From Escherichia coli (lineage in GTDB: Bacteria; Pseudomonadota; Gammaproteobacteria; Enterobacterales; Enterobacteriaceae): a DNA stretch of 64,000 nucleotides. Both the position numbers and the translations under genes were made by a program. Of the stretch, positions 41,822 through 64,000 are shown in pieces; the stretch's first letter is position 1, and each line of letters opens with the position of its first letter. The stretch lies in the NCBI RefSeq assembly GCF_024502345.1, contig NZ_JALDNN010000001.1; one strand, 5' to 3'. The notes below the pieces were generated by a model. That model was not told the DNA's origin, searched no databases, and worked only from the letters and a program-made list of their open reading frames with translations.

Positions 41822-41926
41822 CGTCGCCGGCTCGTTCGTCACAAGAAAAACCCGTCCCGAGACGAGGTGTCGCGGCTCGCGATGCCTCGTCGCCTCAACC
41901 TTTTCAACCTTCTAAGGAGCATCAGC

Positions 41927-46788: not shown

Positions 46789-46875
46789 AAACAGTAGTAG
46801 GTGCCATTCAGAGTAAACCGACGGCTCTGTTCAGTGCGTCATCCAATTCGTCGGCATTGTTCAAGGAGAACCGAT

Positions 46876-47334
46876 ATGTCTGCATTGACTCCGTGGGACC
46901 CCTTCCGGGAACTGGATGAATTGCAAAACCGCCTGGCGACGATGTTCGGACGAATACCCCAGCGACAGGGCGCCCGTACCGGCAACGAAGCCATGACCAC
47001 GGCGGACTGGGCACCAATGGCGGACATCAGCGAGGATGAGAACGCATTCCTCCTCAAGCTGGATCTGCCGGAGGTCCCCAAGGATGCCGTGCGCGTCAGC
47101 GCGGAAAACGGTGTGCTCACCATCAGCGGCGAGCGCAAACTGGAAAAAGAGGAGCAGGGCAAGAAGTTCCACCGCATCGAACGTGCGTATGGCCGCTTTG
47201 TGCGCAGCTTTGTCTTGCCTGACAACGTTGATCCGACCAAGGTGACGGCTTCCATGAAAGACGGCGTACTGGAAGTGCGGCTTGTCAAGGCCGAGCAAGC
47301 CAAACCGAAACAGATTGAAATCTCAGTCAACTAA
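46876..47334 (+). CDS. small heat-shock protein (Hsp20 family), second copy
   Basis: ORF 46801..47334; start placed at MSALTPWDPFRELDELQNRLATMF after aaggag; alpha-crystallin core ...FLLKLDLPEVPKDAVRVSAENGVLTISGERK... Confidence 0.85.
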   Translation: MSALTPWDPFRELDELQNRLATMFGRIPQRQGARTGNEAMTTADWAPMADISEDENAFLLKLDLPEVPKDAVRVSAENGVLTISGERKLEKEEQGKKFHRIERAYGRFVRSFVLPDNVDPTKVTASMKDGVLEVRLVKAEQAKPKQIEISVN

Positions 47335-47356
47335 CTTCAATCAGGAGCCCAAGATC

Positions 47357-48271
47357 ATGAATATCAAACAGCCACAATACACCTTCTCCGCACTTGCCCT
47401 GGCGGTCGTCGTCGGACTGAGCGGACCGGCTCTGGCCCAATCGGCGGCAGGTTCTAGCCCAGGTGCTGCAGCCCCCTCTGCCGCATCCAAGGCGGCACAG
47501 CCACAAGTAGATGACAAGGCCGCCCGGGAAGCCGATAAAAAGCGTGCCGAGCTCACTCAAGACGCCATCACGGCGCTCACCAAGACCCAGGAGGCTTTGA
47601 CCCTCCTTGATGCAAAGAAGACCAAGGAGGCGCTTGCTGCGCTGGAACTGGCCAGCGGAAAGCTGGAACTGGTATTGGCACGTGACGCCAAACTTGCTTT
47701 GGCGCCGGTCGATGTACGCGTCATCACCCACGATATCCACGCCAACGTGGAATCGGTAAAGAAAGCGGTCAAGTTGTCTCGGGAGTTGTTGGGTGATGGC
47801 GAGGTGCAAAAGGCCCGGCCCATCGTTGCCAATCTGGCCAGCGAAATCGTAATCCAAACCGACAACCTTCCGATGGCAACGTACCCGGCAGCGATCAAGT
47901 CGGCCGCACGGCTCATCGACAGCGGCAAGATCGACAACGCCAAAGCGGAACTCGCCCGAGCACTGAACACGCTGGTGGTGACCTCGGTCGCCTTTCCTCT
48001 GCCCGTGCTACGGGCCGAAGCCGCGATGGCAAAAGCTGAAAAGCTGGCCGAGACCGACAGGCGCGATGCCAAGCAGAACGAGGAGCTCAGCACCTTGCTG
48101 TCGTCCGTGCGCACGGAGATCGAGATGGCGCAGATCCTGGGTTATGGCAAGAAGGCGGACTTCAAACCCATTTTCGATCAGGTGAAGTCCATTGAGCAAA
48201 AGTCGGCTGGTGGCAAAAGCGGCAAGGGATGGTTCGACGAGTTGAAGACGCGCATCCAAAAGCTGTTTTGA
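47357..48271 (+). CDS. yfdX: YfdX-family periplasmic protein (tLST YfdX1-like)
   Basis: ORF 47282..48271; start at MNIKQPQYTFSALALAVVVGLSGPALAQ (signal peptide); Ala/Lys-rich helical protein; position in tLST order. Confidence 0.65.
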   Translation: MNIKQPQYTFSALALAVVVGLSGPALAQSAAGSSPGAAAPSAASKAAQPQVDDKAAREADKKRAELTQDAITALTKTQEALTLLDAKKTKEALAALELASGKLELVLARDAKLALAPVDVRVITHDIHANVESVKKAVKLSRELLGDGEVQKARPIVANLASEIVIQTDNLPMATYPAAIKSAARLIDSGKIDNAKAELARALNTLVVTSVAFPLPVLRAEAAMAKAEKLAETDRRDAKQNEELSTLLSSVRTEIEMAQILGYGKKADFKPIFDQVKSIEQKSAGGKSGKGWFDELKTRIQKLF

Positions 48272-48373
48272 GGTGATGAAGGGGCTGACTGCTCTGTCGG
48301 TCAGTCTCGCGATGTTCGCATTCAGCCCCAACAGATTCGCCTATTTTCACTATCTCATACGAGGCATATCACC

Positions 48374-49261
48374 ATGAATGAGCAAACACCGAATCCCAAT
48401 GCGACGAACGAAGGAATAAACGAACAAGCCGCGGTAAGCAGCCTTCCTGTCAGTCCAGAGTCCAAGCCTGAAGTCGTCACGGAGGTACAGCCTGAGGTTC
48501 AGAAAGAAACGGACTCGCAGGCGGCAGACAAACGTAAACAAGTCCTCGATGAGGCAGTCTCGGCCTTGTCGCTGACCAAATCAGCGCTGGCCGCACTTGA
48601 CGGCAAGGACACTGCACGCGCATTGGCAACGCTGGCCGAAGTGACGGGAAAGCTGGAGCTGATCGTCGCGCGCGAACCCACGCTCGCCCTGGCCGGCGTT
48701 GATGTGCGCACCATCGTGCACGACTTGTTCGCCAACACGGAAACCATTGAGGCGATGACCGACGAGGCGCTGGATGCCCTCAAACATGGCGAGGTGCAAC
48801 AGGCTCGCCACGTGCTGGCTTTGCTGGCCAGTGAAATCGTGATCACGGTCACCAACATCCCTTTGGCGTCCTATCCCGCAGCCGTGAAGGCAGTCGTGCC
48901 GCTGATCGATCAGGGCAAGATCGAAGAAGCCAAAGCCGCGCTGCAGTCAGCGCTCAGCACGCTGGTCGAGGAGCGCAGCGTGCTTCCGCTGCCCGTCCTG
49001 CGTGCGAAGCTGCTCCTGAAGCGCGCCGAGCCTCTGGTAGAAGATGGTCAGCGCAGCGAAGCATCCAATGAGCGCCTGGAGACATTGTTGAACGAAGCCC
49101 GGCAGCAGTTGGAAATGGCAGAACTGCTGGGCTATGGAAAAAGGAAGGACTTTGAGCCCCTGTACGCTGAACTCAAGAAAATCAAGGAAAAGACGGGAGG
49201 GGGAGGCTTCGGAAAAGGCTGGCTCGATGAAGTCAAGGCAAAACTGTCCAGGTTGTTCTGA
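48374..49261 (+). CDS. yfdX: YfdX-family protein paralogue (tLST YfdX2-like); no obvious signal peptide
   Basis: 295-aa ORF sharing C-terminal motifs with the preceding gene (…LPLPVLRA…AEKLAE…ILGYGKK.DF.P…KGW.DE.K..…LF). Confidence 0.6.
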   Translation: MNEQTPNPNATNEGINEQAAVSSLPVSPESKPEVVTEVQPEVQKETDSQAADKRKQVLDEAVSALSLTKSALAALDGKDTARALATLAEVTGKLELIVAREPTLALAGVDVRTIVHDLFANTETIEAMTDEALDALKHGEVQQARHVLALLASEIVITVTNIPLASYPAAVKAVVPLIDQGKIEEAKAALQSALSTLVEERSVLPLPVLRAKLLLKRAEPLVEDGQRSEASNERLETLLNEARQQLEMAELLGYGKRKDFEPLYAELKKIKEKTGGGGFGKGWLDEVKAKLSRLF

Positions 49262-49270
49262 AACCGCTGG

Positions 49271-49295
49271 AGAGGGGGCGCATAGTGCCCCCTCT
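49271..49295 (+). terminator. GC-rich hairpin downstream of yfdX2 (possible intrinsic terminator; U-tract not immediately adjacent)
   Basis: agagggggc-gcatagt-gccccctct perfect 9-bp stem, followed ~20 nt later by tttgattttttattttg. Confidence 0.35.
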
Positions 49296-49350
49296 CTTGT
49301 CCCATGAGTGTTTGATTTTTTATTTTGTATAGATCTTTAGGAGATATTGC

Positions 49351-49962
49351 ATGAACACAGACACCATCACCGATTCCAGTGCGGATGACCCCACCAAAGC
49401 ACTGTGTTCGCTTAGCCAAAATTGGTGGCTTTTTGTGCTGCGCGGTGTCTTGGCATTGATTTTTGCAGCCCTCGCGTTCTGGATGCCACAATCGGCTCTG
49501 TTGGCCATGACCATCATGTTCGGCGCATTTTCCTTGGTCAATGGCGCGTTCAACTTGTTTGCAGCGGTGCGCCATATCCAGAAAAAAGAGCGCTGGGGCT
49601 GGTTGTTGTTCAGCGGCATTGTCGGCATACTTACGGGCGTCGTCGTCCTGGTTGCTCCTTGGGTCGCCACGATAGTCTTGGCTTCTTTTTTATGGGCTAG
49701 CGTGGGCTTCTGGGCGATTTTCACCGGTGTGCTGGAGATATCTGCCGCCGTTCGGCTGCGTCGGGAAATCAAGGGTGAAATCTGGCTTGCCCTCAGTGGA
49801 CTGCTCTCGATTATCCTTGGTGCTATCGTCTTGTGGATATTTTTTACCCGTCCGGTCGAGTCATTCGTGGCCGCAGGCTGGCTGTTGGGTTTCCATGCGG
49901 CAGTCTATGGCGTCACGCTTTTGTTCTTGAGTTGGAGTCTTCGCAAAACGCGCCTGGGGTAA
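49351..49962 (+). CDS. hdeD: HdeD-family acid-resistance membrane protein
   Basis: 203-aa ORF with ~6 hydrophobic segments (…WWLFVLRGVLALIFAALAFWMPQSALLAMTIMFGAFSLVNGAFNLFAAV…); tLST order. Confidence 0.75.
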   Translation: MNTDTITDSSADDPTKALCSLSQNWWLFVLRGVLALIFAALAFWMPQSALLAMTIMFGAFSLVNGAFNLFAAVRHIQKKERWGWLLFSGIVGILTGVVVLVAPWVATIVLASFLWASVGFWAIFTGVLEISAAVRLRREIKGEIWLALSGLLSIILGAIVLWIFFTRPVESFVAAGWLLGFHAAVYGVTLLFLSWSLRKTRLG

Positions 49963-50041
49963 GAGCGTGCCAAACCAAAATCTATGGATATGAGCATCCT
50001 CGATTCATGCCTCCATAGAAATGACATCGAAGGAGTCATAC

Positions 50042-51187
50042 ATGCAGATACAATATAGCTATCGAGCTATCGACAAAGAGTTTCATGAACCTTGGCAGAG
50101 AGCTTTGGGAAATGTGATCGAGCACGCCCTCAAGCCATTGCTCGACAAACACACTAAAGATTCAGCGCGACTTCAAATCGTCCTTGATCGCGACAAGATC
50201 AAGCGGCAATTTCTGGCCAGTGGCTATATGCACCTGCCCGGCAAAAAGATTGTCAGCGTTACTGCATCACATGACGAGCTGACGCCCCTCGCGCAGATGC
50301 TCGCACAGTCGTTGTTCCGTCAGGCCAAGAAGCATTTTGACCGACTGCATGCTCAGGATCAAATCAAGCGCAAAGCACGACGCGAGCGCTTGCGCGAGCT
50401 CAAGGTGCGGATTGCCGCAAAACCCGCATCAGCCGCCCATGAGGCCGAGGTGACCCGAATGCCTCTACTGTCGAAACTTGAGGCTGTCGCAAGGCGTGAG
50501 CTGGCTTATCTGCGGGCCGTCGGCGATTTACCGCGCGATTATCCGACGCTGCGCGACGTGGTGGATGAAGCGATTGTCCGAGCTAAGGTGGAATGGCAAT
50601 CCGTGCCGGGGGAAAAAGAGGCTTACACCGGTCTTTTGAAGCATCTGTTCGCCGTCCTGGATAACGAAGTGGCAAGCAGCCGGCAATTTGGCGAATTCGT
50701 TTCTCTGGACGCGCCGGTCGAACCGGATGCCCAAGACGTGGCCGAGGCCATGGTGGAAGAGGAAATCTTCGAATTTTATCAGCACGATGACACACTCAAG
50801 CTGGCCGATATTTTCGCTGGCAGTCAGCATCCCGATGTCGCAACGATCGCGGAACAGGAGGAGCTGATTGATCGGTCGAGCGAGTTCGCTTTTGCATTTG
50901 ACCTGCTGAAGGACATGCCGCGTTTGTGGCGGCGCATTTTTCTGCTTATCCGTGTGGACGGGCTGAATGCCAGCAGCGTCTCTGAAATCCTGCTGATTCC
51001 TAGTAAGGAAGATGCTGTCCAAAGGTGGCTCATGCAGGCCGAAGCATTCATCGCTGCTCATCTGGAAGAGGCCGGAGTAAGCAAAAACGGGAACGATTGG
51101 CTCCAAGGCGTTGATTGGCCGGCATTGTCTGTGACCCGAAGCGAGGCAGCCTCACTGTGGTCCAAGGAGGCGAACCATGAAGAATGA
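50042..51187 (+). CDS. hypothetical protein (tLST orf11); C-terminal segment resembles sigma-70 region 4 HTH
   Basis: ORF 50021..51187; ATG at 50042 preceded by aggag; C-terminal LKDMPRLWRRIFLLIRVDGLNASSVSEILLIPSKEDAVQRWLMQAEAFIAAHL. Confidence 0.5.
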   Translation: MQIQYSYRAIDKEFHEPWQRALGNVIEHALKPLLDKHTKDSARLQIVLDRDKIKRQFLASGYMHLPGKKIVSVTASHDELTPLAQMLAQSLFRQAKKHFDRLHAQDQIKRKARRERLRELKVRIAAKPASAAHEAEVTRMPLLSKLEAVARRELAYLRAVGDLPRDYPTLRDVVDEAIVRAKVEWQSVPGEKEAYTGLLKHLFAVLDNEVASSRQFGEFVSLDAPVEPDAQDVAEAMVEEEIFEFYQHDDTLKLADIFAGSQHPDVATIAEQEELIDRSSEFAFAFDLLKDMPRLWRRIFLLIRVDGLNASSVSEILLIPSKEDAVQRWLMQAEAFIAAHLEEAGVSKNGNDWLQGVDWPALSVTRSEAASLWSKEANHEE

Positions 51188-51617
51188 TCTTCACCTCGTC
51201 TGCCCGCATTGCCAGTCCATCAACCGCGTACCGACTGCGAAGCTATCGGAACATCCCAACTGTGGCCGCTGCCAGCAGCCCTTGTTCACGGGCGAGCCCA
51301 TCGAGTTGACCACGGCGACGTTCTCGCGCCACGTGGAGCGCAGCGATCTGCCGCTGCTGGTCGATTTCTGGGCGCCATGGTGCGGGCCGTGCAAGATGAT
51401 GGCGCCACAGTTCCAGCAAGCGGCGCACCAGCTCGAACCGACGATCCGGCTGGCGAAGGTGAATACCGAGGCTGAGCCCCACCTGGCCGCGCAGTTCGGT
51501 ATCCGCAGCATCCCGACGCTCGCCCTGTTCCAGGGTGGGCGGGAGATCGCCCGTCAGGCCGGCGTGATGGGCGCGCAGGACATCGTGCGCTGGACGTCGA
51601 CGCAAGTGGGACGCTGA
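51177..51617 (+). CDS. thioredoxin with N-terminal zinc-finger extension (Trx2-like)
   Basis: 146-aa ORF: CPHCQSINRV...CGRCQQPLF zinc ribbon and active site WAPWCGPCKMMAP. Confidence 0.85.
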   Translation: MKNDLHLVCPHCQSINRVPTAKLSEHPNCGRCQQPLFTGEPIELTTATFSRHVERSDLPLLVDFWAPWCGPCKMMAPQFQQAAHQLEPTIRLAKVNTEAEPHLAAQFGIRSIPTLALFQGGREIARQAGVMGAQDIVRWTSTQVGR

Positions 51618-51620
51618 CCG

Positions 51621-53336
51621 ATGCAGGGCTTGCTCGGCACTACGCTAATCCTGCTGGCGGCTTGCAGCCTGGCGGCGATGGCGACGGCGGCGTTCAGAGT
51701 GCCCGCCTTGCTGGGGTATCTCTCTGTCGGCGTTGTACTGGGCCCCTCAGTCATCGGCGTGATCGCGCCGGGGGAGACGCTGAGCTTTCTGTCCGAGCTG
51801 GGCGTGGCGCTGCTGTTGTTCATGGTCGGACTGGAATTCTCCCTCGGAGACTTCTGGCTCGCCCGCAGGACGGTGCTGATGGCGGGCGCTCTGCAGATGA
51901 TCGCCGTGGCCCCGCCGCTGATCCTGCTATTGATGTGGCTGGGGCAGCCCGGCCAGAGCGCCGCGCTGCTCGGCACTGCGGCGGCCATGTCGTCCACGGC
52001 GCTGGTCAGCCGACAACTGGCCGACCAAGGCGAGCTCACCACCCGCCACGGACGCAGTGCCATCGCCGTGCTGGTCTTTCAGGACCTGGCCAGCGTGCCC
52101 CTGCTGGCCTTGCTGGCGATCTGGGCGCGCGGCGACTCGCCGAAGATCGAGCATGTGCTGCTCGAAGTATTCGGTGTGCTGCTGCTGTTCGCGGCAGCGG
52201 CCCTCGCCTCGCGCCGTCTGTTGCATGGCCTGCTGGGCTGGGTGGCGCGGCGGGGCCACGAGGAATCGTTCGTGCTCGTCTCCTTGTGCGTGGTGGTGGC
52301 CGCCGCCGCCGCTGCGCACGCGGTCGGCGTATCTGCCGCCCTGGGGGCCTTCCTCGCCGGGATGGTGCTGGGCGAGAGCGACTTCCGGCACCACATGGAA
52401 AGCCACCTCAGGCCGTTTCGCGATGTGTTGTCGGGCGTGTTCTTCGTGACCATCGGCCTGCAACTGGACGCAGCACAGATTCTTTCGGCACCGCTGGCGG
52501 TGCTGGCGTGGCTGGTGGTGCTGGTACCGGTCAAGATCCTGCTCAATACACTGGCCTTGCGGGCGACGCGCCTGTCCGCCCTCGATGCCTGGCGCACGGG
52601 CATAGCGTTGGGGCACGGCGGCGAGTTCGCCCTGCTGTTGTTGGGCACGGTCTTGCAGCAGCATCTGATCCCCGCGACCGTCGTCCAACCCATGCTGGTC
52701 GCGCTGGTGCTCAGCATGGCCCTGGCACCGCTACTGATCCGCCATCACGATGTACTTGCCCGGTTCTTGAGCCGCACCGGCGGCGTCATTCAGCCACCCC
52801 AGGCTGAAGAAGTCGAGATCGCCGCGCAGACGACGCGATATCGAGACCATGTCATCATTTGCGGCGCGGGCGAGCTTGGCCTGACAGTCAGCGAGATTCT
52901 TCGCCACGCCGGCGTGGCGCATCTGCTGCTGGAGGCGGACGCGCAGAAGGTCGAGGCCGCGCGTGCCGCCGGCGCGCCGGTGTTCCATGCCGATGCCAGT
53001 CGGCCCGATACCTTGCTGGCTGCCGGCTTGACGCATGCACACTTGGTGGTGCTGACGTTCGCCCATGCCCAGCAAGCGTTGCGCATCGCCCAGGCGATTG
53101 CCGAGCACCGTCCGGCGCTGACCTTGTGGGTGTCATGCAGAAGTACGACCGCGGCCGATGCATTTCGCGCCATGCCCAACGTGCGCGTGTATCAGCAATC
53201 CTTTGCCGCAGCTATTGGGCTGGCGGAACAGGTGATGTCGACGCTTGGCATGTCGACCGAGCTGATTGAAGGACACATCAGCGCAATGCGCCGCCGTCTC
53301 GACAGCAGCCGTTTTCCAGGGAGTTCATCGTCATGA
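51621..53336 (+). CDS. kefB: KefB-like monovalent cation:proton antiporter-2 (CPA2) with C-terminal TrkA-N/RCK domain
   Basis: 571-aa ORF; 12-13 TM segments then Rossmann-type VIICGAGELG... regulatory domain. Confidence 0.8.
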   Translation: MQGLLGTTLILLAACSLAAMATAAFRVPALLGYLSVGVVLGPSVIGVIAPGETLSFLSELGVALLLFMVGLEFSLGDFWLARRTVLMAGALQMIAVAPPLILLLMWLGQPGQSAALLGTAAAMSSTALVSRQLADQGELTTRHGRSAIAVLVFQDLASVPLLALLAIWARGDSPKIEHVLLEVFGVLLLFAAAALASRRLLHGLLGWVARRGHEESFVLVSLCVVVAAAAAAHAVGVSAALGAFLAGMVLGESDFRHHMESHLRPFRDVLSGVFFVTIGLQLDAAQILSAPLAVLAWLVVLVPVKILLNTLALRATRLSALDAWRTGIALGHGGEFALLLLGTVLQQHLIPATVVQPMLVALVLSMALAPLLIRHHDVLARFLSRTGGVIQPPQAEEVEIAAQTTRYRDHVIICGAGELGLTVSEILRHAGVAHLLLEADAQKVEAARAAGAPVFHADASRPDTLLAAGLTHAHLVVLTFAHAQQALRIAQAIAEHRPALTLWVSCRSTTAADAFRAMPNVRVYQQSFAAAIGLAEQVMSTLGMSTELIEGHISAMRRRLDSSRFPGSSSS

Positions 53337-53830
53337 AATCAACACGCCTTAACCCATTTCAGGTCTTACGTGACCAATTGGCCATCATGAGTTTTTACGA
53401 GCGCTTCGAGCAGGTCGTCGCGCTCGTGCTGTCGGCGGTGATCGCCGTCATCATCGTGGTGTCGCTGTTCCAGCTCATCTCCATCGTCTTCACGCTGCTG
53501 GTTCTAGATGCCTTCAATCCCCTGGACCACGAGGTATTCCAGAGCGTGTTCGGCATGATCATGACGCTCTTGATCGCGATGGAGTTCAAGCATTCCATCG
53601 TGCGCGTGGCGCTGCGTCGGGACAGCATCATCCAGGTCAAGACGGTGGTCCTGATCGCGCTGATCGCACTCTCCCGCAAGTTCGTGATCCTCGACTCCAA
53701 CGCGAGCCCCGCAAAGATAGCCGCGCTGGCTAGCGCCACGCTGGCTCTGGGTGCGACCTACTGGCTGCTGCGCAAGCGCGGCGACCGCGCCGCCGAGACC
53801 TCTGAGCATGACCCGTCATCATCCCAGTGA
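53333..53830 (+). CDS. psiE: PsiE-family inner-membrane protein
   Basis: 165-aa ORF, four hydrophobic segments; position in tLST order; overlaps upstream and downstream genes. Confidence 0.6.
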   Translation: MKSTRLNPFQVLRDQLAIMSFYERFEQVVALVLSAVIAVIIVVSLFQLISIVFTLLVLDAFNPLDHEVFQSVFGMIMTLLIAMEFKHSIVRVALRRDSIIQVKTVVLIALIALSRKFVILDSNASPAKIAALASATLALGATYWLLRKRGDRAAETSEHDPSSSQ

Positions 53831-54773
53831 TCCGCGCACGGCGCTCTTGCAACACCGCTGGCTCAACCGCCTGCAGACCGGGCTGTTGGTCCTGACCCTG
53901 GTCGGGATCGCAGCCGCAGCAGGGAGACTGCCGTTTGGGGAAGGCTGCCTGTGGCTCGCGCTGTTTGCCATTGCAGGTGCGTTGCTGCTGGAACCGGTAG
54001 CCGCGTCGGCGCTGAGCTTGCGCCTGTACCGCGTACGGGCCTTGCACCCGCAAGAAGCCCACAAGATGTGGGCCCTATTGCGCGAGCTGCCCGCCCGTGC
54101 CGGTTTGCCCGCCACGCCGGTGCCGCACTATGTGCCCAGTGCCGTCGTCAACGCCTTCGCCACCGGATCGAAGCAGGAGGCATCGATCGCCCTCACCGAT
54201 GGCCTGCTGCGCAGCCTGAGCCCACGCGAGCTGGCGGGTGTGCTCGTGCACGAGGTCGCGCACATCGCTAATGAGGATCTGCGTGTCATGGGGCTGGCGG
54301 ATTCCGACAGTCGCCTCACGAGCCTACTGGCCCTTATGGGACAGATCGCGATCCAGCTCAGCCTGCCCGCGCAGCTGGTTGGCGCGGCGGAGGTCTATTG
54401 GCCTGGTCTATTGTTATTGGCCGCATCGCCCCAGCTGGCCCTGCTCGCACAGCTCGGCTTGTCTCGCGTGCGTGAGTTCGACGCTGACCGCCTTGCGGCG
54501 GAACTGACTGGCGACCCGCAGGGGCTGGCGTCCGTGCTGGCAAAAATCGAGCGGGTCAGCCGCTCCTGGCGTGCCTGGCTATGGCCGGGATGGGGCAATC
54601 CCGAGCACTCCTGCTTGCGTACGCGTCCGGCAACGCAAGAGCGCATTGCACGCCTGCTGACGTTGGCGCCTGGGCCAGCATCAGCGTTGCCACTCCGCGC
54701 GCCCCATTTTTTGCCGGAATCCGCTTTGGCGACGCGCCCACCGAGCTGGCGCCCGAGCGGGCTGTGGCGCTGA
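53808..54773 (+). CDS. M48-family zinc metalloprotease (HtpX-like)
   Basis: ORF 53751..54773; start placed at MTRHHPSDPRTALLQHRWLNRL; HExxH motif VLVHEVAHIANEDL; N-terminal TM segments. Confidence 0.75.
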   Translation: MTRHHPSDPRTALLQHRWLNRLQTGLLVLTLVGIAAAAGRLPFGEGCLWLALFAIAGALLLEPVAASALSLRLYRVRALHPQEAHKMWALLRELPARAGLPATPVPHYVPSAVVNAFATGSKQEASIALTDGLLRSLSPRELAGVLVHEVAHIANEDLRVMGLADSDSRLTSLLALMGQIAIQLSLPAQLVGAAEVYWPGLLLLAASPQLALLAQLGLSRVREFDADRLAAELTGDPQGLASVLAKIERVSRSWRAWLWPGWGNPEHSCLRTRPATQERIARLLTLAPGPASALPLRAPHFLPESALATRPPSWRPSGLWR

Positions 54774-54797
54774 TTGCCCATCAACAGGAGACGTCTC

Positions 54798-55949
54798 ATG
54801 GCCTATCTCGACCCGTACCAACGCCCCGCGCCGGACCGCTTCGTCCGGCGCGGGCTCTTCATCACCGCCTGCATTGCCGCGCTCATGCTGCTGTGGCAGT
54901 TTCTGCCCGCCATCGAGGCATGGTTCAGTCCGCGCGAGGCAGCAGAACGCACCGTGATGGCGCGTGGCGATCTGGCGGCGGACGAGAAAACCACCATCGA
55001 ACTGTTCGAAAAATCGCGCGCCTCGGTGGTCTACATCACCACCGCGCAATTAGTACGCGATGTCTGGACGCGCAACGTGTTCTCCGTGCCGCGCGGCACT
55101 GGCTCGGGCTTCATCTGGGACGACGCCGGCCACGTCGTCACCAACTTCCACGTCATCCAGGGCGCGTCCGAAGCCACCGTCAAACTGGCCGACGGCCGCG
55201 ACTACCAGGCCGCGCTGGTGGGGATGAGCCCCGCGCACGACATCGCCGTGCTCAAGATCGGCGTCGGTTTCAAGCGCCCGCCGGCCGTGCCGGTCGGCAC
55301 CAGTGCCGACCTCAAGGTGGGTCAGAAGGTGTTCGCTATCGGCAACCCCTTCGGCCTGGACTGGACGCTCACCACAGGTATCGTCTCCGCGCTCGACCGC
55401 TCGTTGCCGGGAGAAGCGGGCGGCCCGGCCATCGATCACCTGATCCAGACCGACGCCGCCATCAACCCCGGCAATTCCGGTGGCCCGCTGCTCGATTCGG
55501 CTGGGCGGCTGATCGGAATCAATACCGCCATCTACAGTCCGTCTGGCGCCTCGGCCGGCATAGGCTTTGCGGTGCCGGTCGATACCGTCATGCGCGTGGT
55601 GCCGCAACTCATAAAGACCGGCAAGTACATCCGTCCGGCACTGGGCATCGAGGTGGATGAGCAGATCAACGCGCGTCTGCAGGCGCTGACCGGCAGTAAG
55701 GGCGTATTCGTATTGCGCGTGACGCCGGGCTCGGCGGCGCACAGGGCCGGGCTCGTCGGCGTCGAGGTCACCGCAGGCGGCATCGTGCCCGGCGATCGCG
55801 TTATCAGCATCGACGGTATCGCCGTCGACGACGTCACCACATTACAGGCCCGGCTAGACGACAAGAACGTTGGAGATGTTGTGGTCTTGTTAGTGGAGCG
55901 GGCCGGCAAGACTCGCGAGATGCTTGTGGAACTACAACCGGGAGTTTGA
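54798..55949 (+). CDS. degP: DegP/HtrA-family periplasmic serine protease with single PDZ domain
   Basis: ORF 54774..55949; start at MAYLDPYQRP after aggag; catalytic H (TNFHVI), D (DIAVLKI), S (GNSGGPLL); C-terminal PDZ. Confidence 0.85.
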   Translation: MAYLDPYQRPAPDRFVRRGLFITACIAALMLLWQFLPAIEAWFSPREAAERTVMARGDLAADEKTTIELFEKSRASVVYITTAQLVRDVWTRNVFSVPRGTGSGFIWDDAGHVVTNFHVIQGASEATVKLADGRDYQAALVGMSPAHDIAVLKIGVGFKRPPAVPVGTSADLKVGQKVFAIGNPFGLDWTLTTGIVSALDRSLPGEAGGPAIDHLIQTDAAINPGNSGGPLLDSAGRLIGINTAIYSPSGASAGIGFAVPVDTVMRVVPQLIKTGKYIRPALGIEVDEQINARLQALTGSKGVFVLRVTPGSAAHRAGLVGVEVTAGGIVPGDRVISIDGIAVDDVTTLQARLDDKNVGDVVVLLVERAGKTREMLVELQPGV

Positions 55950-56173
55950 TGGAAAGTGGGTCATGGATCTGCACAGCGAAGCAGCCAAGCGACTTCAGCC
56001 TTGCGCCGAACTACGAGCCCTAGCTAGGGATGGTCTGAAGTAGCCCTGTATTTCCGGCTGACTTCAGCCACTGCTGATTTTGAAAGCGGTGAACCGATCA
56101 AAAACGATCGGATCACCCGCTCATTTCGGTGCTTTCAGCCGTCGCGAGCACCTTGCGACGGCCATTTTCCGCA

Positions 56174-56770
56174 TTACAGGCGCACCTCTCCTGCGCTTGC
56201 CAGCAAATGTCGGCGGGCCATCCATAGGTTCGACAGGGCAAACAGCGTCACCAGTTGTGCAGTGTTCCTCACCAGCCCTCGGAAACGTACCTTGGTGTAG
56301 CCGAACTGCCGCTTGATCACGCGAAACGGGGGCTCTACCTTCGCTCGCACTTGCGCCTTGGCCTTCTCGATCTTGCGCTTGGCTTTGTACAGGGCGCTGC
56401 GTTTATCGAGCATCTTGTAGGTGCTGCGGCGTGCTGCGACCTGCCAGATCACTTCTCGGTCGGCATGCTCGGAGCGCTTTTCGACGCCGGTGTAGCCGGC
56501 ATCGGCGCAGACGACGTTCTCGTCGCCGTGCAGCAGCTTGTCGACCTGGGTGACATCCGCCACGGTGGCTGCCGTGCCCACCACGCTGTGTACCAGCCCC
56601 GATTCATCATCAACGCCGATGTGCGCCTTCATGCCAAAGTAATACTGGTTCCCCTTCTTGGTCTGGTGCATTTTCGGGTCGCGCTTGCCGTCCTGGTTCT
56701 TGGATGAACTGGGCGCGTGGATCAGCGTGGCATCGACGATAGTCCATCTTGATAATATCGGGCCGCTCAA
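56174..56770 (-). pseudogene. IS5-family transposase fragment (C-terminal ~190 aa; 5' part absent)
   Basis: ...DATLIHAPSSSKNQDGKRDPKMHQTKKGNQYYFGMKAHIGVDDESGLVHSVVGTAATVADVTQVDKLLHGDENVVCADAGYTGVEKR... DDE_Tnp_1-type motifs; no N-terminal domain upstream. Confidence 0.65.
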
Positions 56771-56911
56771 CGCTCGGGTACCAGGAGGTGACGGACCCGT
56801 ATACCAAAGAAAAATACTTTGAGTACGCCCATGACGGCAAACTGATGGGGCAGCTACTGATACCCTCGAACCCTGACAATCAGGAATAAAACAACGACAA
56901 AGGAGACAAGA

Positions 56912-57379
56912 ATGACAATACTTTCACTAAGTCGGTTTATGCTGGCGGGTGTACTGCTCGCGAGCTTTAATGCCTCTGCTATCCCGGGGTTCTGGCAGCA
57001 GGGTTACGGTCAGGGCAATACGGAATACAGCGTGACCGAAGCCAGCGGAAAGACGTTTACCATCAACTGCACAGGGAACCCGGACCAGAATGGTTTCTAT
57101 CAGCATTCAGTCTTTCTTACCCTTGCCGATGACAAGATGGTCAGTTCGCACGATGACGACACTACTATCACCGTAGTGATGGATCACCAGCAGTACATTA
57201 TTCCGTCCAGCCTGGGCTGGCGTAACGGCGATAACGCCTGGTTTGACTTCATCAGCAATATCTCTGAGGCCGGGCAGTTCGACGTCTACGTCAATGACCA
57301 CAAAGCAGGGACCTTCACTGCGGACCGGAAGAACACTGAGAAAGTTCTGTCCACTCTCGGAGACTGCAGCAACGACTGA
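56912..57379 (+). CDS. secreted hypothetical protein with signal peptide (YkfB/YfjT-like by size and context)
   Basis: 155-aa [26 protein letters not shown]... ; two Cys (CTGNP...DCSND); precedes DUF905/antirestriction cluster as in CP4-type prophages. Confidence 0.45.
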
Positions 57380-57455
57380 TAGTAGTATCTTCCCCAGCAA
57401 ATCCACCCCGACAGCTAGCAGGCTGCCGGGGTTTTCTTTTATCAGGAGCCCGAAA

Positions 57456-57695
57456 ATGACCCAATCCGTGTTGCTGCCACCGGGGCCTTTCACCCGGAGA
57501 CAAGCGCAAGCGGTCACTACCACGTACAGCAATATCACACTCGAAGACGACCAGGGCAGTCACTTCCGTCTGGTGGTTCGTGATACTGAAGGCCGGATGG
57601 TCTGGCGGGCATGGAACTTTGAGCCGGATGCCGGTGAAGGTCTTAACCGCTATATCCGCACCTCAGGCATCCGTACAGACACGGCCACCCGCTGA
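57456..57695 (+). CDS. DUF905-family small protein (YkfF-like)
   Basis: ORF 57243..57695; start at [79 protein letters not shown]. Confidence 0.6.
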
Positions 57696-57792
57696 TCGCG
57701 AAGCATTTACCCGCATTCACCTCCCCGAACACACTTTATATCCCCATACGCCAGCCATCGCCGCTGGCGTTTTTATTGACGGAGACATACCC

Positions 57793-58251
57793 ATGACAAC
57801 ACAGACGCAGCACGACCTCGCACCCGCTAACCAACCCGAATTTGAACTGACCGTCACGCCGGTCCCCGATGAACAGCGTATCGATTTCTGGCCACAGTAC
57901 TTTGGCGCTATCCCGCAGTGGCTACTCCTGGAGCCGCATATCTTCGCCTGGATGGACCGCTTCTGTGAGGGCTACAGCGGTGGTATCTGGTCGTTCTACA
58001 CCCTCAGCAATGGCGGCGCATTTATGTCCCCCGAGCCTGACAACGATGAGACATGGCGTCTGTTTAACTGCCTGAACGGTAACGATGCCCAAATGAGTGC
58101 AGAAGCAGCAGGTATTGCTGTCTGCCTGATTGCGTATAGCCACCATGCCTGCCGTACAGAATGTGACGCGATGACCGCACACTATTACCGCCTGCGGGAG
58201 TATGCCATGCAACATCCAGAGGCTCACGCCATTCTGCGTATTATCGACTGA
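57793..58251 (+). CDS. antirestriction protein (KlcA/ArdB-like; YafX/YfjX family)
   Basis: ORF 57580..58251; start at MTTQTQHDLAPANQPEFELTVTPVPDEQRIDFWPQYFGAIPQWLLLEPHIFAWMDRFCEGYSGGIWSFYTLSNGGAFM... Confidence 0.75.
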   Translation: MTTQTQHDLAPANQPEFELTVTPVPDEQRIDFWPQYFGAIPQWLLLEPHIFAWMDRFCEGYSGGIWSFYTLSNGGAFMSPEPDNDETWRLFNCLNGNDAQMSAEAAGIAVCLIAYSHHACRTECDAMTAHYYRLREYAMQHPEAHAILRIID

Positions 58252-58266
58252 CCGAAGGAGCAACAG

Positions 58267-58743
58267 ATGAAACAGCTTTCCTTTTTACCCGGCGAGATGA
58301 CGCCACAGGACCGGCGTCTCATTCAGCGGGCGCTCAGGGCTCTGGACCGCCACCTGCATGAGCCCGGCGTAGCCTTCACCTCTACCCACGCCGTACGTGA
58401 ATGGCTGCGACTGCATATGGCCGCGCTTGAGCGGGAAGAGTTCCGGGTGTTGTATCTGGACAACCAGAATCAGTTGATTGCCCATGAAACGCTCTTCACC
58501 GGCACGATTAACCGCACCGAGGTGCATCCCCGGGAGGTGGTCAAACGTGCTCTGCACTTCAACGCGGCGGCGGTGATACTCGCGCATAACCATCCTTCCG
58601 GCGAGACGACACCTAGCCAGGCCGACAAAACCCTCACGCAGCGACTGGTTCAGGTGCTTCAGCTGGTGGATATCCGTGTCCTTGACCATCTGATTGTCGG
58701 TGGCAGGCAAATCTATTCGTTCGCAGAACACGGTCTGCTTTGA
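58267..58743 (+). CDS. RadC-like JAB/MPN-domain protein (YkfG/YeeS/YfjY family)
   Basis: 158-aa ORF with JAMM motif ...AAAVILAHNHPSGETTPSQADKTLTQRL... Confidence 0.8.
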   Translation: MKQLSFLPGEMTPQDRRLIQRALRALDRHLHEPGVAFTSTHAVREWLRLHMAALEREEFRVLYLDNQNQLIAHETLFTGTINRTEVHPREVVKRALHFNAAAVILAHNHPSGETTPSQADKTLTQRLVQVLQLVDIRVLDHLIVGGRQIYSFAEHGLL

Positions 58744-58751
58744 GGTATTAC

Positions 58752-58973
58752 ATGAAAATTATCAGTAAACGCAGGGCAATGACGATATACCGCCAGCATC
58801 CTGAGTCCCGAATCTTTCGCTACTGCACCGGCAAATACCAGTGGCACGGTAGCGTCTGTCATTACACCGGCAGGGACGTTCCGGATATCGCCGGAGTCCT
58901 CGCGGTATACGCCGAACGCCGCCAGGACCGCAATGGGCCCTATACCTGCCTGATGAGCATCACCCTGAACTGA
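58752..58973 (+). CDS. DUF987-family protein (YkfH/YeeT/YpjJ-like)
   Basis: ORF 58740..58973; start at MKIISKRRAMTIYRQHPESRIFRYCTGKYQWHGSVCHYTGRDVPDIAGVLAVYAERRQDRNGPYTCLMSITLN. Confidence 0.65.
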   Translation: MKIISKRRAMTIYRQHPESRIFRYCTGKYQWHGSVCHYTGRDVPDIAGVLAVYAERRQDRNGPYTCLMSITLN

Positions 58974-58991
58974 CAATAGTGGAGAACTGTA

Positions 58992-59671
<680 letters not shown>

Positions 59672-60249
59672 ACATTGCGTACAACCTTCCCGATTTACAT
59701 TTCTGAACTTCCTCCCTTGTTTACCTATTGCGTAATGCGCCTGCTACTACCCGGCAGGCGCGTTATCTTTTTACGGACAAACAATCATGCAACCAGAAGT
59801 TGAAGTATTAACCGATCATAATGAGCTAATTTGTTCGAGCTTTATTGAACACATTGCCAACACATTAAATTTAGGAGTGGTGTACAACTAAACCTGCAGC
59901 CAAGGATGTATAGTGAGCGAAGCCCTATCAGGCCTTTTTGGTCAGTAGATAAGATTGATCTTCGTTGATAGAATTTACTTACACCAGCTGTTACATTAAG
60001 ATAATTTTTTGGTGGGAGAATGATAAGATCTTACGTAACAATTTGATTTTAATGGTGCGATAATAGGAACATAACACACCACATATAACCATTGATAAAC
60101 ATACATATTTTCTTGTTTCATCTTTATAAATGCCCCCTTTTGTGCCCCCGCCTTGGTTTTCATACGACTCGATGAGCCTTTCATCGAGTCGTTAATCTCA
60201 CCAATTTCTTCACAGACCGTGCAAACCTTCTCAGCTCTTTAAGCCCCCC

Positions 60250-60618
60250 TCACTGACGCGATCGGCTAAGAACAATATTACTTACTTCCCGATAAGAACA
60301 ACTGTTCATTAATCCGCATGCTTTCCTGGCATGAAGGATATCTGTCACGGTCAGATATGGCGCTTGTTCCTGTGAGGAAAATCCACTGCGATCGATACGG
60401 ACTAACTCATACTTCTCCACCAGAAAGTTGATAGCATTAGCCAGGGTGATACCGGCATCGATATGTTCCTGTATGACGGTTTCATCACAGAAAGGTGTAT
60501 CGTTTAGCGTCAGGCCATAATGCTGTTCCAGCAGACGACTAAGTAACATTTGCCAGATAGTCACGGGCGATAGGCATGGCTTCGCCGCCCGCATATTTTT
60601 TGCAGGTTGAAATTTCAT
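60250..60618 (-). CDS. type IV toxin, CbtA family, second divergent copy
   Basis: 122-aa [83 protein letters not shown]... Confidence 0.8.
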
Positions 60619-60638
60619 TTTTTCTCTCGTGAAAGTAA

Positions 60639-60956
60639 TTAACGTTGAGTGGGATAAACGGCGATGTATACGTAGCCGCAGCTGCCAAGGGTATCGGCTT
60701 CGCAGGTAAAACCGTCGTGGTACAGGGTGACGCTGTGGGCATGACGAGGATTCAGTTCACCGGAGGTCAGCATCAATTCCATCTGGCTGATAAAGTGCGG
60801 GAAAGTTTCATCCAGTTTCCGGCATTCGGCGTCACTGAATTGACCGGTGTTGCTGGCCCGGTCAGCCAGATAATGCAGCCGGTTCCCTTCTTGCACAAGG
60901 CGGGCTCCCAGGCGCGGCGTGATATCCCGCTGCAGGCCCCATGTGATGTTACTCAT
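60639..60956 (-). CDS. type IV antitoxin, CbeA family, second copy
   Basis: 105-aa [108 protein letters not shown] (~85% identical to first copy). Confidence 0.8.
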
Positions 60957-60975
60957 TGATAAACCTCTTTTATTT

Positions 60976-61197
60976 TCAATTCAGGGTGATGCTCATTAGA
61001 CAGGCATAAGGCCCGTTGCGATCCTGGCGGCGTTCGGCGTATATCGCCAGCACACCGGGAATGTCAGGAACCACCTTACCGGTGTAATGACAGACACTGC
61101 CATGCCACTGGTATCTGCCAGTGCAGAATCGAAAAATGCGGGAGGCCGGATGCTGACGGTAAATCGTCATTGCCCGGCGTTTACTGATAATTTTCAT
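60976..61197 (-). CDS. DUF987-family protein, second copy
   Basis: ORF 60976..61209; start at MKIISKRRAMTIYRQHPASRIFRFCTGRYQWHGSVCHYTGKVVPDIPGVLAIYAERRQDRNGPYACLMSITLN. Confidence 0.65.
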   Translation of the reverse strand: MKIISKRRAMTIYRQHPASRIFRFCTGRYQWHGSVCHYTGKVVPDIPGVLAIYAERRQDRNGPYACLMSITLN

Positions 61198-61205
61198 GTC
61201 ATACC

Positions 61206-61688
61206 TCAAAGCAAACCGTGTTCAGCGAACGACAATATCTGCGTGCCACCGACGATGAGATGGTCAGGCACACGGATATCAACGAGCTGAAGCGCCTGCA
61301 CCAGACGCTGCGTGACAGCTTTATCAGCCTGACTGGGTGTGGTGTCACCGGAAGGGTGGTTATGCGCAAATAACACTGCTGCCGCATTGAAATACAGGGC
61401 CCGCTTGACCACCTCACGGGGATGAACCTCGGTGCTGCTGATGGAACCGGCAAACAGGATTTCGTGGGTAATCAACTGGTTCTGCTGGTTCAGGTACAGC
61501 ACCATAAACTCTTCGCGCTCCAGTCCCGCCATTTTCAGTTTCAGCCAGTCACGGGCAGCCTGAGTGGAGGTGAATGCCACACCTGTTTCTCGCAGGTGTC
61601 GGTCAAGCAGCGTTAAAGCGCGTTTTACCGTGCGTTGTGCGGCCAATGGAAGTGCCGTAGCCTGTGGGATAAGTGACTGTTCCATCAT
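61206..61688 (-). CDS. RadC-like JAB/MPN-domain protein, second copy
   Basis: 160-aa ORF ...AAAVLFAHNHPSGDTTPSQADKAVTQRLVQALQLVDIRVPDHLIVGG... Confidence 0.8.
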   Translation of the reverse strand: MMEQSLIPQATALPLAAQRTVKRALTLLDRHLRETGVAFTSTQAARDWLKLKMAGLEREEFMVLYLNQQNQLITHEILFAGSISSTEVHPREVVKRALYFNAAAVLFAHNHPSGDTTPSQADKAVTQRLVQALQLVDIRVPDHLIVGGTQILSFAEHGLL

Positions 61689-61696
61689 AAGTATCC

Positions 61697-62587
61697 TTAA
61701 TCAATAATGCGCAGAATGGCGCTGGATTCAGGGTGCTGCAGAACGTAATCCCGCAGGCGGTAATAGTGTTCAGTCATGGCATTGCATTCGGTGCGACAGG
61801 TGTGATGGCTGTATTCAATCAGGCAGACAGTGATACCTGCGGCTTCCGCGCTCATTTGCGCACTATTGCCGTTCATGCCGTTGAACAGGTGCCATTTATC
61901 GTCACCGTCAGCATCAGGGGCCATAAACGCTCCGCCATTGCTGAGCGTATAAAAGGACCAGATACCGAAAGTCATCTCCGACTGGCTGCCGAAGCGAACT
62001 CCGGCGCGGATATGCTGTGCGCTACCGTCACCAAAGTTCACGTAGCCTCCATTGTCATGACCGTTATTCAGGGACAGCCCCTGCCAGATATACTGAAGCT
62101 GCGGCTCCAGTATCAGGCCATTGGTCACACTGAACGGCAGACCCGTTTCCAGCGAACCCAGCCAGCCCCAGCCGTGGGTAGCGAAACTGTCTGCATCAGA
62201 CGTCGCTTTCAGGTTATGACGGGAGCCCTGAGCCACCACATCTGTCCACAGGCCGCTGGCGGCATGCACGGCGGTCAGATAACCGCCCAGGCTGTACACA
62301 TCATCACGGGCACTCCCGGCACGGGAGCGGTCATCGTCTTTTATATCAACAGAAGAATGTCCCGCTGCACCATACACACCGGCTTTCAGCGAAGAGTTGC
62401 TCAGCAAGTCGCCGCCCAGTTGTACAAAGCCGTAGCTGCCGCTGCTTTCCGGTATCGCACCCTGCGCAATTCCGCCGTTATTTTCATGCCCCATATGACC
62501 ACCCTGGATGCGCCCCCAGACTCCGCTGCCACCTTTGACCGCGCTGCGCTGGTTGTAGCTACCTGCCAGTGCGCGGTCATAGTCCAT
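61697..62587 (-). pseudogene. in-frame fusion: Ag43-like autotransporter beta-domain fragment (N-terminal ~207 aa) + C-terminal half of antirestriction protein
   Basis: ...LEPQLQYIWQGLSLNNGHDNGGYVNFGDGSAQHIRAGVRFGSQSEMTFG (Ag43/flu C-terminal beta-barrel segment) joined to IWSFYTLSNGGAFMAPDADGDDKWHLFNGMNGNSAQMSAEAAGITVCLIEYSHH...ILRIID (matches residues ~66-152 of the intact antirestriction gene at 57793-58251). Confidence 0.6.
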
Positions 62588-62646: not shown

Positions 62647-63012
62647 TCAGATACCCACAGCTTCACCCGCCAGACAGGGCGCGTCGTTGCAGTTCAGCAG
62701 CAGGCTGACCAGTCGACGGTCCAGCCCCGGAAACAGATCGGCTACACCTGTACGATGAGCGAAGGTCAGCACATCCAGCTCGGCCTGCGCACCACTCACG
62801 CCCGTCCGCAGGCGGTAACAACCGTTGCTACATTCAAGATCCAGATACATCAGCCGTTCGCGAAAATCGCGGTACAGAGTACGAGCAGATACACCAAACT
62901 CTGCTGTCAGCCTGCGCATATTCAGCGTTTCACCTGCAACGAGGCGACTGATAATCAGCGACAGCCTGATCGCCAGCCTGTCGTGGCGGCGCTCTGTCTG
63001 TGTCATTATCAT
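62647..63012 (-). pseudogene. HTH transcriptional regulator fragment (YfjR-like, N-terminal ~105 aa only)
   Basis: [54 protein letters not shown]... HTH then early stop; only ~60 bp separates it from the Ag43 fragment. Confidence 0.45.
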
Positions 63013-63232: not shown

Positions 63233-63979
63233 TTAAACAGACTGAAACTGTGACAACATCGTTTCCGCCATCACCCACAGCGCACGGTTGAGTTTTACGT
63301 CCCCGTCAATGCCACGCACCGCACGGGTATGCGTTCGCCCGCCTTTAGCATTACGTCCACTAAGCCCGCCCTTAATCAGGTTTTCCTGTACACGCTGATA
63401 AGTGGTCCACAGATCATTGCTCTCATCCTGCCAGCGGCGTGGGGAGAGTATCTGCGATTCATTAACAGGCTGGTGGTCCTCACCAAAGCGATACGTAAGC
63501 GCTGCTTTAGCAAGTGCCTGCTGCGCAGGTGGCGGTAGCATCAGAGACTGCATGGCATCGCGTTTCTCTTCCACCCGGTCAAAAATCCCAAGCACTTCAT
63601 AAGCCCCTTCAATCACCTGACTCACCACATCACCTTTGTGTGGTACCCGCACCTCACCAAACGACTCACCGCAGACAAGCCCGTTCTGACACACCGCACG
63701 AAATAATCCCGGCAGCATTTGATACGAACTGGTGCCATCATGAGAGTTAAGCAGAATGATTTCCGGCACCTGTTTACCTGTAATTTGCCCCTCCCGACGC
63801 AGGCGAAGCATGTGCTTGGTGTGTTCCCGACGCCCCGGGTCACGCACGCGGGTCTGACAGGCAAAGAATGGCTGAAAGCCTTCGCGCTGCAGGTTGTCCA
63901 GCAGGGATATGGTTGGAATATAGGTATAACGTTCGCTGCGGGATTTGTGTTTGTCCTGACTGAAAACGCTGGGCACCAC
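63233..63979 (-). CDS. DUF932-family protein (YafZ/YfjQ-like), CP4-type prophage remnant; true start may lie beyond the window end
   Basis: 248-aa ORF ...ILLNSHDGTSSYQMLPGLFRAVCQNGLVCGESFGEVRVPHKGDVVSQVIEGAYEVLGIFDRVEEKRDAMQSLML... Confidence 0.55.
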   Translation of the reverse strand: MVPSVFSQDKHKSRSERYTYIPTISLLDNLQREGFQPFFACQTRVRDPGRREHTKHMLRLRREGQITGKQVPEIILLNSHDGTSSYQMLPGLFRAVCQNGLVCGESFGEVRVPHKGDVVSQVIEGAYEVLGIFDRVEEKRDAMQSLMLPPPAQQALAKAALTYRFGEDHQPVNESQILSPRRWQDESNDLWTTYQRVQENLIKGGLSGRNAKGGRTHTRAVRGIDGDVKLNRALWVMAETMLSQFQSV

Positions 63980-64000
63980 ACGAAACAGCTCTTCACGGGT

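Follow-up and report, generated by a model that had tools for sequence, protein, structure and literature searches.

Why do the tails of two prophage-like elements face each other on the chromosome of Escherichia coli? The window that we analyzed (64,000 nucleotides of contig NZ_JALDNN010000001.1, with positions counted from its first letter) is E. coli chromosome around two homologous CP4-type modules. The modules encode an antirestriction protein, a RadC-like protein, a DUF987 protein, a CbeA-family antitoxin, and a CbtA-family toxin. Module 1 is on the plus strand, module 2 is on the minus strand, and the two converge. A first-pass annotation of this DNA had described this arrangement, and the map of open reading frames (ORFs), NCBIfam, and Pfam all agree with it. 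The annotation had explained the arrangement as an inversion or deletion junction between two formerly separate prophage remnants, or else as an assembly artefact. We argue that the region is very probably something simpler: the seam of a tandem array of two integrative islands, which would have entered the tRNA-Thr gene thrW one after the other.

The key evidence is in the spacer between the two toxin genes. As had been described, the spacer is AT-rich and about 580 bp long (59672-60249, 578 bp, 39.8% G+C). It was also said to contain no tRNA gene and no recognizable att core. The first part of this statement stands, as ARAGORN found no tRNA gene in the whole window. The second part does not. 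Positions 60053-60068 read TGGTG-CGATAATAGGA, which is the reverse complement of the 3' end of thrW minus one base (in the alignment with thrW of E. coli C, TGGTG-CGATAATAGGA from the window is set against TGGTGCCGATAATAGGA). The missing G is 2–3 nucleotides (nt) before the discriminator base. ARAGORN is blind to this fragment because it is only 16 nt long. Together with its flank, the fragment is unique in the window, and zero matches are expected by chance. Identity to K-12 and to E. coli C ends at 60068, which is 17 nt inside thrW, and the sequence of the island that carries module 2 ("island 2") begins there. We read the seam as the attR of a site-specifically integrated island and not as the scar of an inversion or deletion; the annotation had itself named a 3' tRNA fragment in the spacer as grounds for dropping its explanation, and the sequence at 60053-60068 is such a fragment. 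We also scanned the spacer with Rfam at a permissive threshold. The only match was to a small RNA from Listeria, with 17.8 bits as compared to a gathering score of 87, which we took to be noise.

On one side of the fragment, the sequence is familiar from K-12. Positions 56779-60068, which include module 1 and 397 bp 3' of ykfI, are 99.8–99.9% identical to the cryptic prophage CP4-6 of K-12 and E. coli C (99.8% DNA identity over 3291 bp, for positions 262930-266220 of K-12). The seven proteins of module 1 each differ from their K-12 counterparts by 0 or 1 residue. These comparisons identify module 1 as the thrW-proximal end of CP4-6, from ykfB to ykfI. In E. coli C and in K-12, thrW is on the opposite strand and 381 bp past ykfI, so the toxin and tRNA genes are convergent. 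Module 1 is oriented like CP4-6 of K-12, with the toxin gene reading toward thrW. However, CP4-6 of K-12 adjoins the whole of thrW, while module 1 adjoins just the last 16 nt, with island 2 intervening. Also, unlike in K-12, the inner part of CP4-6 is cut in the window by a deletion, a fragment of insertion sequence (IS) IS5, and a heat-resistance locus.

On the other side of the fragment, the proteins of module 2 are closest to those of CP4-57 (LfgB/YfjY at 92% identity, YfjZ at 88%, and YpjF at 73%), which identifies module 2 as the tail of a CP4-57-like island. The annotation was right that the modules come from two formerly separate elements: one is the end of CP4-6 and the other belongs to a CP4-57-like island. 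It had also proposed that CP4-like elements normally end at a tRNA gene just past the toxin gene. This is true of CP4-6 only, as the toxin end of CP4-57 is distal to ssrA.

The window ends inside island 2, and we followed the remainder of the island in complete genomes with the same junction. These are the sister isolates Z226-5 and Z226-6, with 99.9% identity to the window, and CAVP773, with ~95–96% identity and other cargo. In Z226-5 and CAVP773, island 2 continues for ~24–28 kb to a tyrosine integrase (398 or 401 amino acids), an intact tRNA-Thr gene, proA, and proB. In other words, the native neighborhood of thrW (proA-proB) is reached in both lineages. The integrase gene is 164 bp from thrW in Z226-5 and is also next to thrW in CAVP773. 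In the sense of thrW, attL reads thrW...TCCTATTATCGGCACCATT and then continues into integrase-side sequence. At attR, island-side sequence is followed by TCCTATTATCG-CACCATT and then by the CP4-6 sequence found after thrW in K-12. The cores of attL and attR are direct repeats of 19–20 nt, which fits site-specific integration at the 3' end of a tRNA gene, and the fragment at 60053-60068 has the same orientation as the intact thrW of Z226-5 and CAVP773.

Island 2 is laid out like CP4-57, which has a P4-like integrase (intA) beside its target gene, although the target is ssrA for CP4-57 and thrW for island 2. The two have a common gene order: an AlpA-type regulator, a GTPase, DUF932, a WYL regulator, an antirestriction protein, RadC, DUF987, antitoxin, and toxin. 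The proteins of CP4-57 are 73–92% identical to those of island 2. In CP4-57, yfjZ-ypjF is followed after 189 bp by a psaA fragment; in island 2, there are 181 bp between the toxin gene and the thrW fragment. Unlike CP4-57, island 2 in its intact relatives carries Ag43, a SIR2 protein, and arsC as cargo. In the window, deletions have disrupted the antirestriction, Ag43, and WYL genes of island 2.

If both islands are at thrW, why do their tails converge? CP4-6 of K-12 has a 60-bp direct repeat (nt 28–76 of thrW and another 11 nt) at its boundaries. Its ykfI is on the thrW side, and its intF begins 110 bp from the repeat at the far end. Going from integrase to toxin, CP4-6 points toward thrW, while island 2, like CP4-57, points away from its target gene. 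IntF and the integrase of island 2 use different crossover segments of thrW. They are unrelated beyond the catalytic fold: they are just 22% identical over 147 amino acids, and only the island-2 integrase matches the P4-type model NF007246. (The match to NF007246 is full-length, with 302 bits and E = 4.5e-90, but does not reach the curated cutoff of 434; in RefSeq, this protein is annotated with an arm-type DNA-binding domain.) Because one integrase would use thrW with the opposite polarity to the other, relative to the body of the island, the two conserved tail operons would end up facing each other. No inversion or deletion is needed.

The array probably formed in three steps. As comparison to K-12 shows, a CP4-6-type element with IntF recombined with thrW from the anticodon stem to the 3' end, yielding the 60-bp repeat that is seen in K-12. 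This placed the toxin end (yafW-ykfI) 381 bp from thrW and the integrase at the far end. Then, as seen in the close relatives and inferred for this strain, a CP4-57-related island of ~24–28 kb with a P4-like integrase would have recombined with the last 17–20 nt of the thrW that CP4-6 had regenerated. The integrase end of the new island would meet the regenerated thrW. Its toxin end would meet what its entry had displaced, namely the last 17 nt of thrW (now the fragment at 60053-60068) and the toxin end of the old CP4-6. The presence of CP4-6 sequence behind the displaced fragment indicates that CP4-6 came first. Finally, both islands decayed in this lineage by three deletions that are apparent in the window, and IS elements and the heat-resistance locus cut CP4-6 short.

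Tandem arrays at tRNA genes are well known, and the Islander database catalogs 125 of them (PMC4383910). In these arrays, the intact target gene comes first, then the newest island, then a displaced 3' fragment with the same orientation as the gene, and then the older island; our region has this order too. The missing base also has precedents. The Islander paper (PMC4383910) notes, with reference to Williams 2003, that some islands have this same small deletion in their displaced fragments, 3 bp upstream of the discriminator, similar to the 2–3 nt in the window. Unlike in the Islander arrays, the two members of our array differ in their crossover segments within thrW and are opposite in internal polarity, and the older one lacks its own integrase end. 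We also found the same damaged fragment, with the CP4-6 end, in other strains that have quite different and unrelated elements at thrW. One strain has the displaced fragment intact, with the same CP4-6 end behind it. Overall, this is ordinary tandem accretion of islands, of a class that was already cataloged; its members are a degraded K-12-type CP4-6 end and an uncharacterized CP4-57-like island at thrW.

Among 5,426 complete genomes of E. coli, 368 have the direct thrW-ykfI junction as in K-12 and 785 have an island-2-type integrase beside thrW. The exact tail-to-tail junction is found in just three of them (Z226-5, Z226-6, and CAVP773).

Relatives of island 2 are found in other contexts as well. 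In a 362-kb plasmid from E. hormaechei (NZ_CP056156.1, ~6000-6210 of the segment that we fetched), a tail of the module-2 type ends at the same core (TCCTATTATCACC...), beside unrelated plasmid genes. This suggests that this family of islands also inserts at thrW-like sites outside of the chromosome. In strain ET729 (NZ_CP100927.1, 9001-10409 of the fetched segment), an identical integrase is next to only the last 49 nt of thrW, and is beside ycgV and the dha operon instead of proA. The 49-nt boundary is also the crossover boundary of the CP4-6 (IntF) repeat, which hints at a rearrangement via a second att site. The arrangement in ET729 looks like an unrelated rearrangement.

Several considerations weigh against a tandem array. 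The displaced fragment is short (16 nt) and has lost a base, so by itself it is weak evidence, and it is synteny that gives it weight. For this strain, the integrase, attL, and thrW are beyond the end of the window, and we infer them from strains that are 96–99.9% identical across the junction. Also, a strict definition of a tandem array has an integrase and a fragment for each member, and this describes only island 2, as seen in its relatives. We searched the window for a second thrW fragment, intF, or the far 60-bp repeat of CP4-6 and found none of these, and the inner part of CP4-6 has been replaced. Module 1 is a stranded remnant, and the array comprises one complete island and one degraded island. 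Lastly, island 2 may have integrated in situ in this lineage or the block may have been imported by homologous recombination.

Import of the block would mean that island 2, attR, the CP4-6 remnant, and the heat-resistance locus arrived ready-made, with the same structure and origin of the junction. The order of thrW, island 2, attR, CP4-6 end, IS5 fragment, and heat-resistance locus is common to unrelated strains (CAVP773 at ~96% identity and Z226-5 at 99.9%), and a second copy of mhp genes, with 83% identity, travels with the block. We consider such an import to be possible but not the likelier history, and it would not change the nature of the junction. Another way to join two prophage remnants tail to tail is a chromosomal inversion or deletion whose breakpoints are past the toxin genes. 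The modules are indeed inverted relative to each other, and the region has clearly been hit by other deletions and by IS-mediated rearrangements. But the seam is precisely a 3' fragment of thrW, and it reads in the same direction as the intact thrW at the opposite end of island 2. Furthermore, both flanks of the seam are native ends of elements (as seen in K-12 and E. coli C for one flank and in the plasmid from E. hormaechei for the other), and no extra event is needed. This makes an inversion or deletion quite improbable.

The two remaining explanations depend on the similarity of the modules to each other. They form an inverted repeat (57982-59629 and 60319-61966) whose arms are 77–81% complementary, which is far above chance; a global alignment has 80.4% identity over 1652 columns (~1.65 kb). 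The divergence is uniform, at ~80% identity throughout, and the longest identical run is 28 nt. We looked in this alignment for gene conversion between the arms and found no long identical tract. This pattern indicates that the arms are old paralogs rather than the result of a recent inverted duplication or of conversion; a recent inverted duplication or large palindrome should have near-identical arms or long identical tracts. Had a single module been duplicated locally in inverted orientation, with the two copies then diverging in place, this would account for the same gene order in both arms and for the 20-nt spacers between antitoxin and toxin in both. However, module 1 is nearly identical to CP4-6 of K-12 while module 2 is closest to CP4-57 (92% for RadC and 88% for the antitoxin), each arm runs outward into its own complete island backbone, and the arms are 20% different without any conversion tracts. 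We give this scenario almost no weight.

A mis-join of two paralogous loci during assembly is just as improbable. The modules are paralogous, and further copies are found elsewhere in E. coli genomes, at up to 9 places per genome. But arms with 80% identity are too divergent to mislead an assembler, and the annotation's suspicion of an artefact does not survive the recurrence of the junction in other assemblies. It is present in the complete genomes of Z226-5, Z226-6, and CAVP773 (this last one is 95% identical and hence independent). The identical protein from the chimeric ORF (described below) is found on at least 23 contigs from NCBI, ENA, and Logan. We fetched six contigs from these sources, and 5/6 span the seam. 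Two of them (L014 from NCBI and L016 from Logan) are 100% identical to the window over 7.6–7.9 kb, including the seam and all three deletion junctions. Contigs that are 100% identical across the junction, along with arms that are only 80% identical, effectively exclude an artefact.

Table 1. Features at the junction of the two islands, in order along the window.
Feature	Position	Strand	Evidence or comment
IS5-family transposase fragment	56174..56770	-	Left boundary, between the heat-resistance locus and the CP4-6 remnant
yafY/yfjS 3' remnant	56779..56889	+	blastn against Z226-5 and junction sequences
ykfB (YfjT family)	56912..57379	+	First intact gene of module 1; 1 amino acid from K-12 YkfB; annotated as ykfB in relatives
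ykfF (DUF905)	57456..57695	+	Identical to K-12 YkfF
yafX antirestriction	57793..58251	+	Identical to K-12 YafX; annotated as antirestriction protein in relatives
ykfG RadC-like JAB protein	58267..58743	+	NCBIfam TIGR00608, 158 bits; 1 amino acid from K-12 YkfG
ykfH (DUF987)	58752..58973	+	Identical to K-12 YkfH
yafW CbeA-family type IV antitoxin	58992..59309	+	Pfam PF06154, 1.9e-49; 1 amino acid from K-12 YafW
ykfI CbtA-family type IV toxin, 113 amino acids	59330..59671	+	Pfam PF06755, 2.4e-68; 1 amino acid from K-12 YkfI
CP4-6 terminal non-coding end, 381 bp	59672..60052	+	Length and sequence as in the ykfI-thrW interval of E. coli C and K-12
Displaced tRNA-Thr thrW 3' end, 16 nt (TCCTATTATCG-CACCA, one G missing)	60053..60068	-	Putative attR core of island 2
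Island 2 terminal non-coding end, 181 bp	60069..60249	-	From toxin stop codon to attR; matches the E. hormaechei plasmid copy from the core on
Island 2 CbtA-family toxin, 122 amino acids	60250..60618	-	Pfam PF06755, 1.3e-56; 73% to YpjF, 76% to YkfI
Island 2 CbeA-family antitoxin, 105 amino acids	60639..60956	-	Pfam PF06154, 1.6e-52; 88% to YfjZ, 84% to YafW
Island 2 DUF987 protein	60976..61197	-	Annotated as DUF987 in Z226-5; 89% to YkfH
Island 2 RadC-like JAB protein	61206..61688	-	NCBIfam TIGR00608, 152 bits; 92% to K-12 LfgB/YfjY
Chimeric ORF, 296 amino acids	61697..62587	-	Pfam: Autotransporter at residues 23-213, Antirestrict at residues 208-296
WYL/DeoR-type regulator, truncated	62647..63012	-	ORF call and comparison to Z226-5
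Island 2 DUF932 gene, continues past the window end	63233..64000	-	Annotated as DUF932 at the same place in Z226-5

The CP4-6 half of the spacer has two other features. A terminator scan found a terminator-like hairpin with a run of T at 59732-59776, 61 nt past the stop codon of ykfI; the same scan gave no terminator-like site on the island-2 side of the spacer. Also, a 34-codon ORF at ~59787-59891 corresponds to ykfN of K-12, which is a small ORF or pseudogene, and is called as a 34-amino-acid gene on related contigs.

We then considered the two toxin-antitoxin pairs. NCBIfam has no match for the toxins, the antitoxins, the DUF987 proteins, or the antirestriction proteins, and we used Pfam for the toxins, the antitoxins, and the chimeric ORF. 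The match to Pfam's CbtA_toxin (PF06755) covers positions 1–112 of the 112-position model for YkfI and positions 1–111 for the second toxin. In both modules, the antitoxin gene is directly upstream of the toxin gene and on the same strand, with a gap of 20 nt (59310-59329 and 60619-60638). Both pairs are thus CbtA/CbeA-family members of full length. Between the two antitoxins, identity is 84% (88/105), close to the ~85% that had been reported. The toxins are more divergent and the second is longer, also as reported: they are 76% identical over 104 amino acids, with lengths of 113 and 122 (9 more residues). In CbtA/CbeA (YeeV/YeeU) of CP4-44, the antitoxin is likewise upstream of the toxin. The toxins in the window are 58% identical to CbtA, and the antitoxins are 62–69% identical to CbeA. 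The cbeA-cbtA spacer is 88 nt, instead of the 20 nt of the pairs in the window and of ykfI and ypjF.

Going by the literature, each tail would encode a type IV pair whose toxin acts on FtsZ and MreB and whose antitoxin counteracts the toxin without binding it; for CbtA/CbeA, an absence of toxin-antitoxin binding is reported (PMC5371832). YkfI and YpjF of K-12 are toxic, interact with FtsZ, and give lemon-shaped cells (PMC5371832). For the YkfI/YafW pair of K-12, toxicity, neutralization, and interaction with FtsZ are all reported (PMC5371832), and the corresponding proteins in the window differ from these by 1 amino acid each. Because YafW, YfjZ, and CbeA each neutralize YkfI, YpjF, and CbtA in K-12 (PMC5371832), cross-neutralization between the two pairs in the window is plausible. 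The identities between the two pairs (84% for the antitoxins and 76% for the toxins) are within the range of the K-12 paralogs, which also makes it likely. Cross-neutralization among such paralogs was already published and is not new. We can speculate that YafW and the antitoxin of island 2 each neutralize the toxin of the other island and so have an anti-addiction effect, but we think this is rather unlikely. If so, neither tail operon could enforce the retention of its own island, which would explain how island 2 was free to lose its antirestriction, Ag43, and WYL genes.

We defined the three deletions relative to Z226-5, using blastn and the junction sequences. The deletion in CP4-6, of 4.4 kb, is between the IS5 fragment and the yafY 3' end (junction at 56779-56781, with microhomology TAC). 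Within island 2, one deletion removed 655 bp, namely the N-terminus of the antirestriction protein and the 3' end of Ag43 (junction at 61963-61966, with microhomology TACC). The other removed 2.2 kb, including most of Ag43 and the C-terminus of the WYL regulator (junction at 62651-62655, with microhomology ATACC). We considered IS5 as the cause of the 4.4-kb deletion, but the breakpoint is ~40 bp outside of the IS5-like part, and we could not show any link.

The annotation had listed an antirestriction gene for both modules, but that of module 2 is not intact. As compared to Z226-5, the ORF at this position is a chimera that was created by the 655-bp deletion: the last 89 codons of the antirestriction gene (61697-61966) are joined in frame to an internal fragment of the β-domain of Ag43. 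The predicted protein retains nearly all of Pfam's antirestriction domain. Because this deletion also removed the intergenic region upstream of the antirestriction gene, the operon of module 2 may no longer have its native promoter.

The left breakpoints of the two deletions in island 2 have the 9-mer CAGATACCA in common. This 9-mer occurs 6 times, on both strands, in a 24.8-kb region, as compared to an expectation of ~0.2. The shorter motif TACC is not enriched in the region (101 observed versus 97 expected). By a rough estimate, the chance of a common TAC core at all three deletions is ~1e-3. It is conceivable that the three deletions, with their (A)TAC(C) joints, arose by a sequence-directed process and not by random slippage, although we find this even harder to credit than the anti-addiction effect.

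The rest of the window has several other features. The IS5 fragment is 70% identical to IS5 of K-12 over 321 nt; the annotations of Z226-5 and CAVP773 list it as a partial transposase of the IS5 family. Beyond it is a complete locus of heat resistance (also known as the transmissible locus of stress tolerance), at ~40900-55950 and with 65–70% G+C. Its genes include sHSP20, clpK, an FtsH-like protease, sHSP20-GI, yfdX1/2, hdeD-GI, trx-GI, kefB-GI, psiE-GI, htpX, and a DegP-like protease. The locus adjoins the CP4-6 remnant, with the IS5 fragment between them, and Z226-5 and CAVP773 have the same linkage. A partial mhp (3-hydroxyphenylpropionate) cluster is present twice, at 1-4805 and 31686-36510, with 82.6% identity. 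The second copy is between mmuP and the region with IS30 and the heat-resistance locus; it looks foreign and to have traveled with the block. Positions 1-29125 contain the mhp, lac, cyn, cod, and prp region, which is joined via IS1 (25096-25864) to the inside of afuC/fbpC and to mmuM-mmuP of CP4-6 (~277 kb in K-12). We take the mhp-lac-cyn-cod-prp region to be at ~350–370 kb on the K-12 map. The joint at IS1 points to a deletion or rearrangement associated with IS1, by which CP4-6 lost its remaining part, intF included.

The importance of these findings is modest and lies mainly in correct annotation: a tRNA fragment of 16 nt, which tRNA finders cannot detect, suffices to explain the odd convergent arrangement. 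The locus is a documented case of thrW accumulating islands whose integrases differ and whose internal orientations are opposite. It also provides a natural case of two pairs from the CbtA/CbeA family that are just 0.6 kb apart and that, in the genomes we examined, adjoin a heat-resistance locus.

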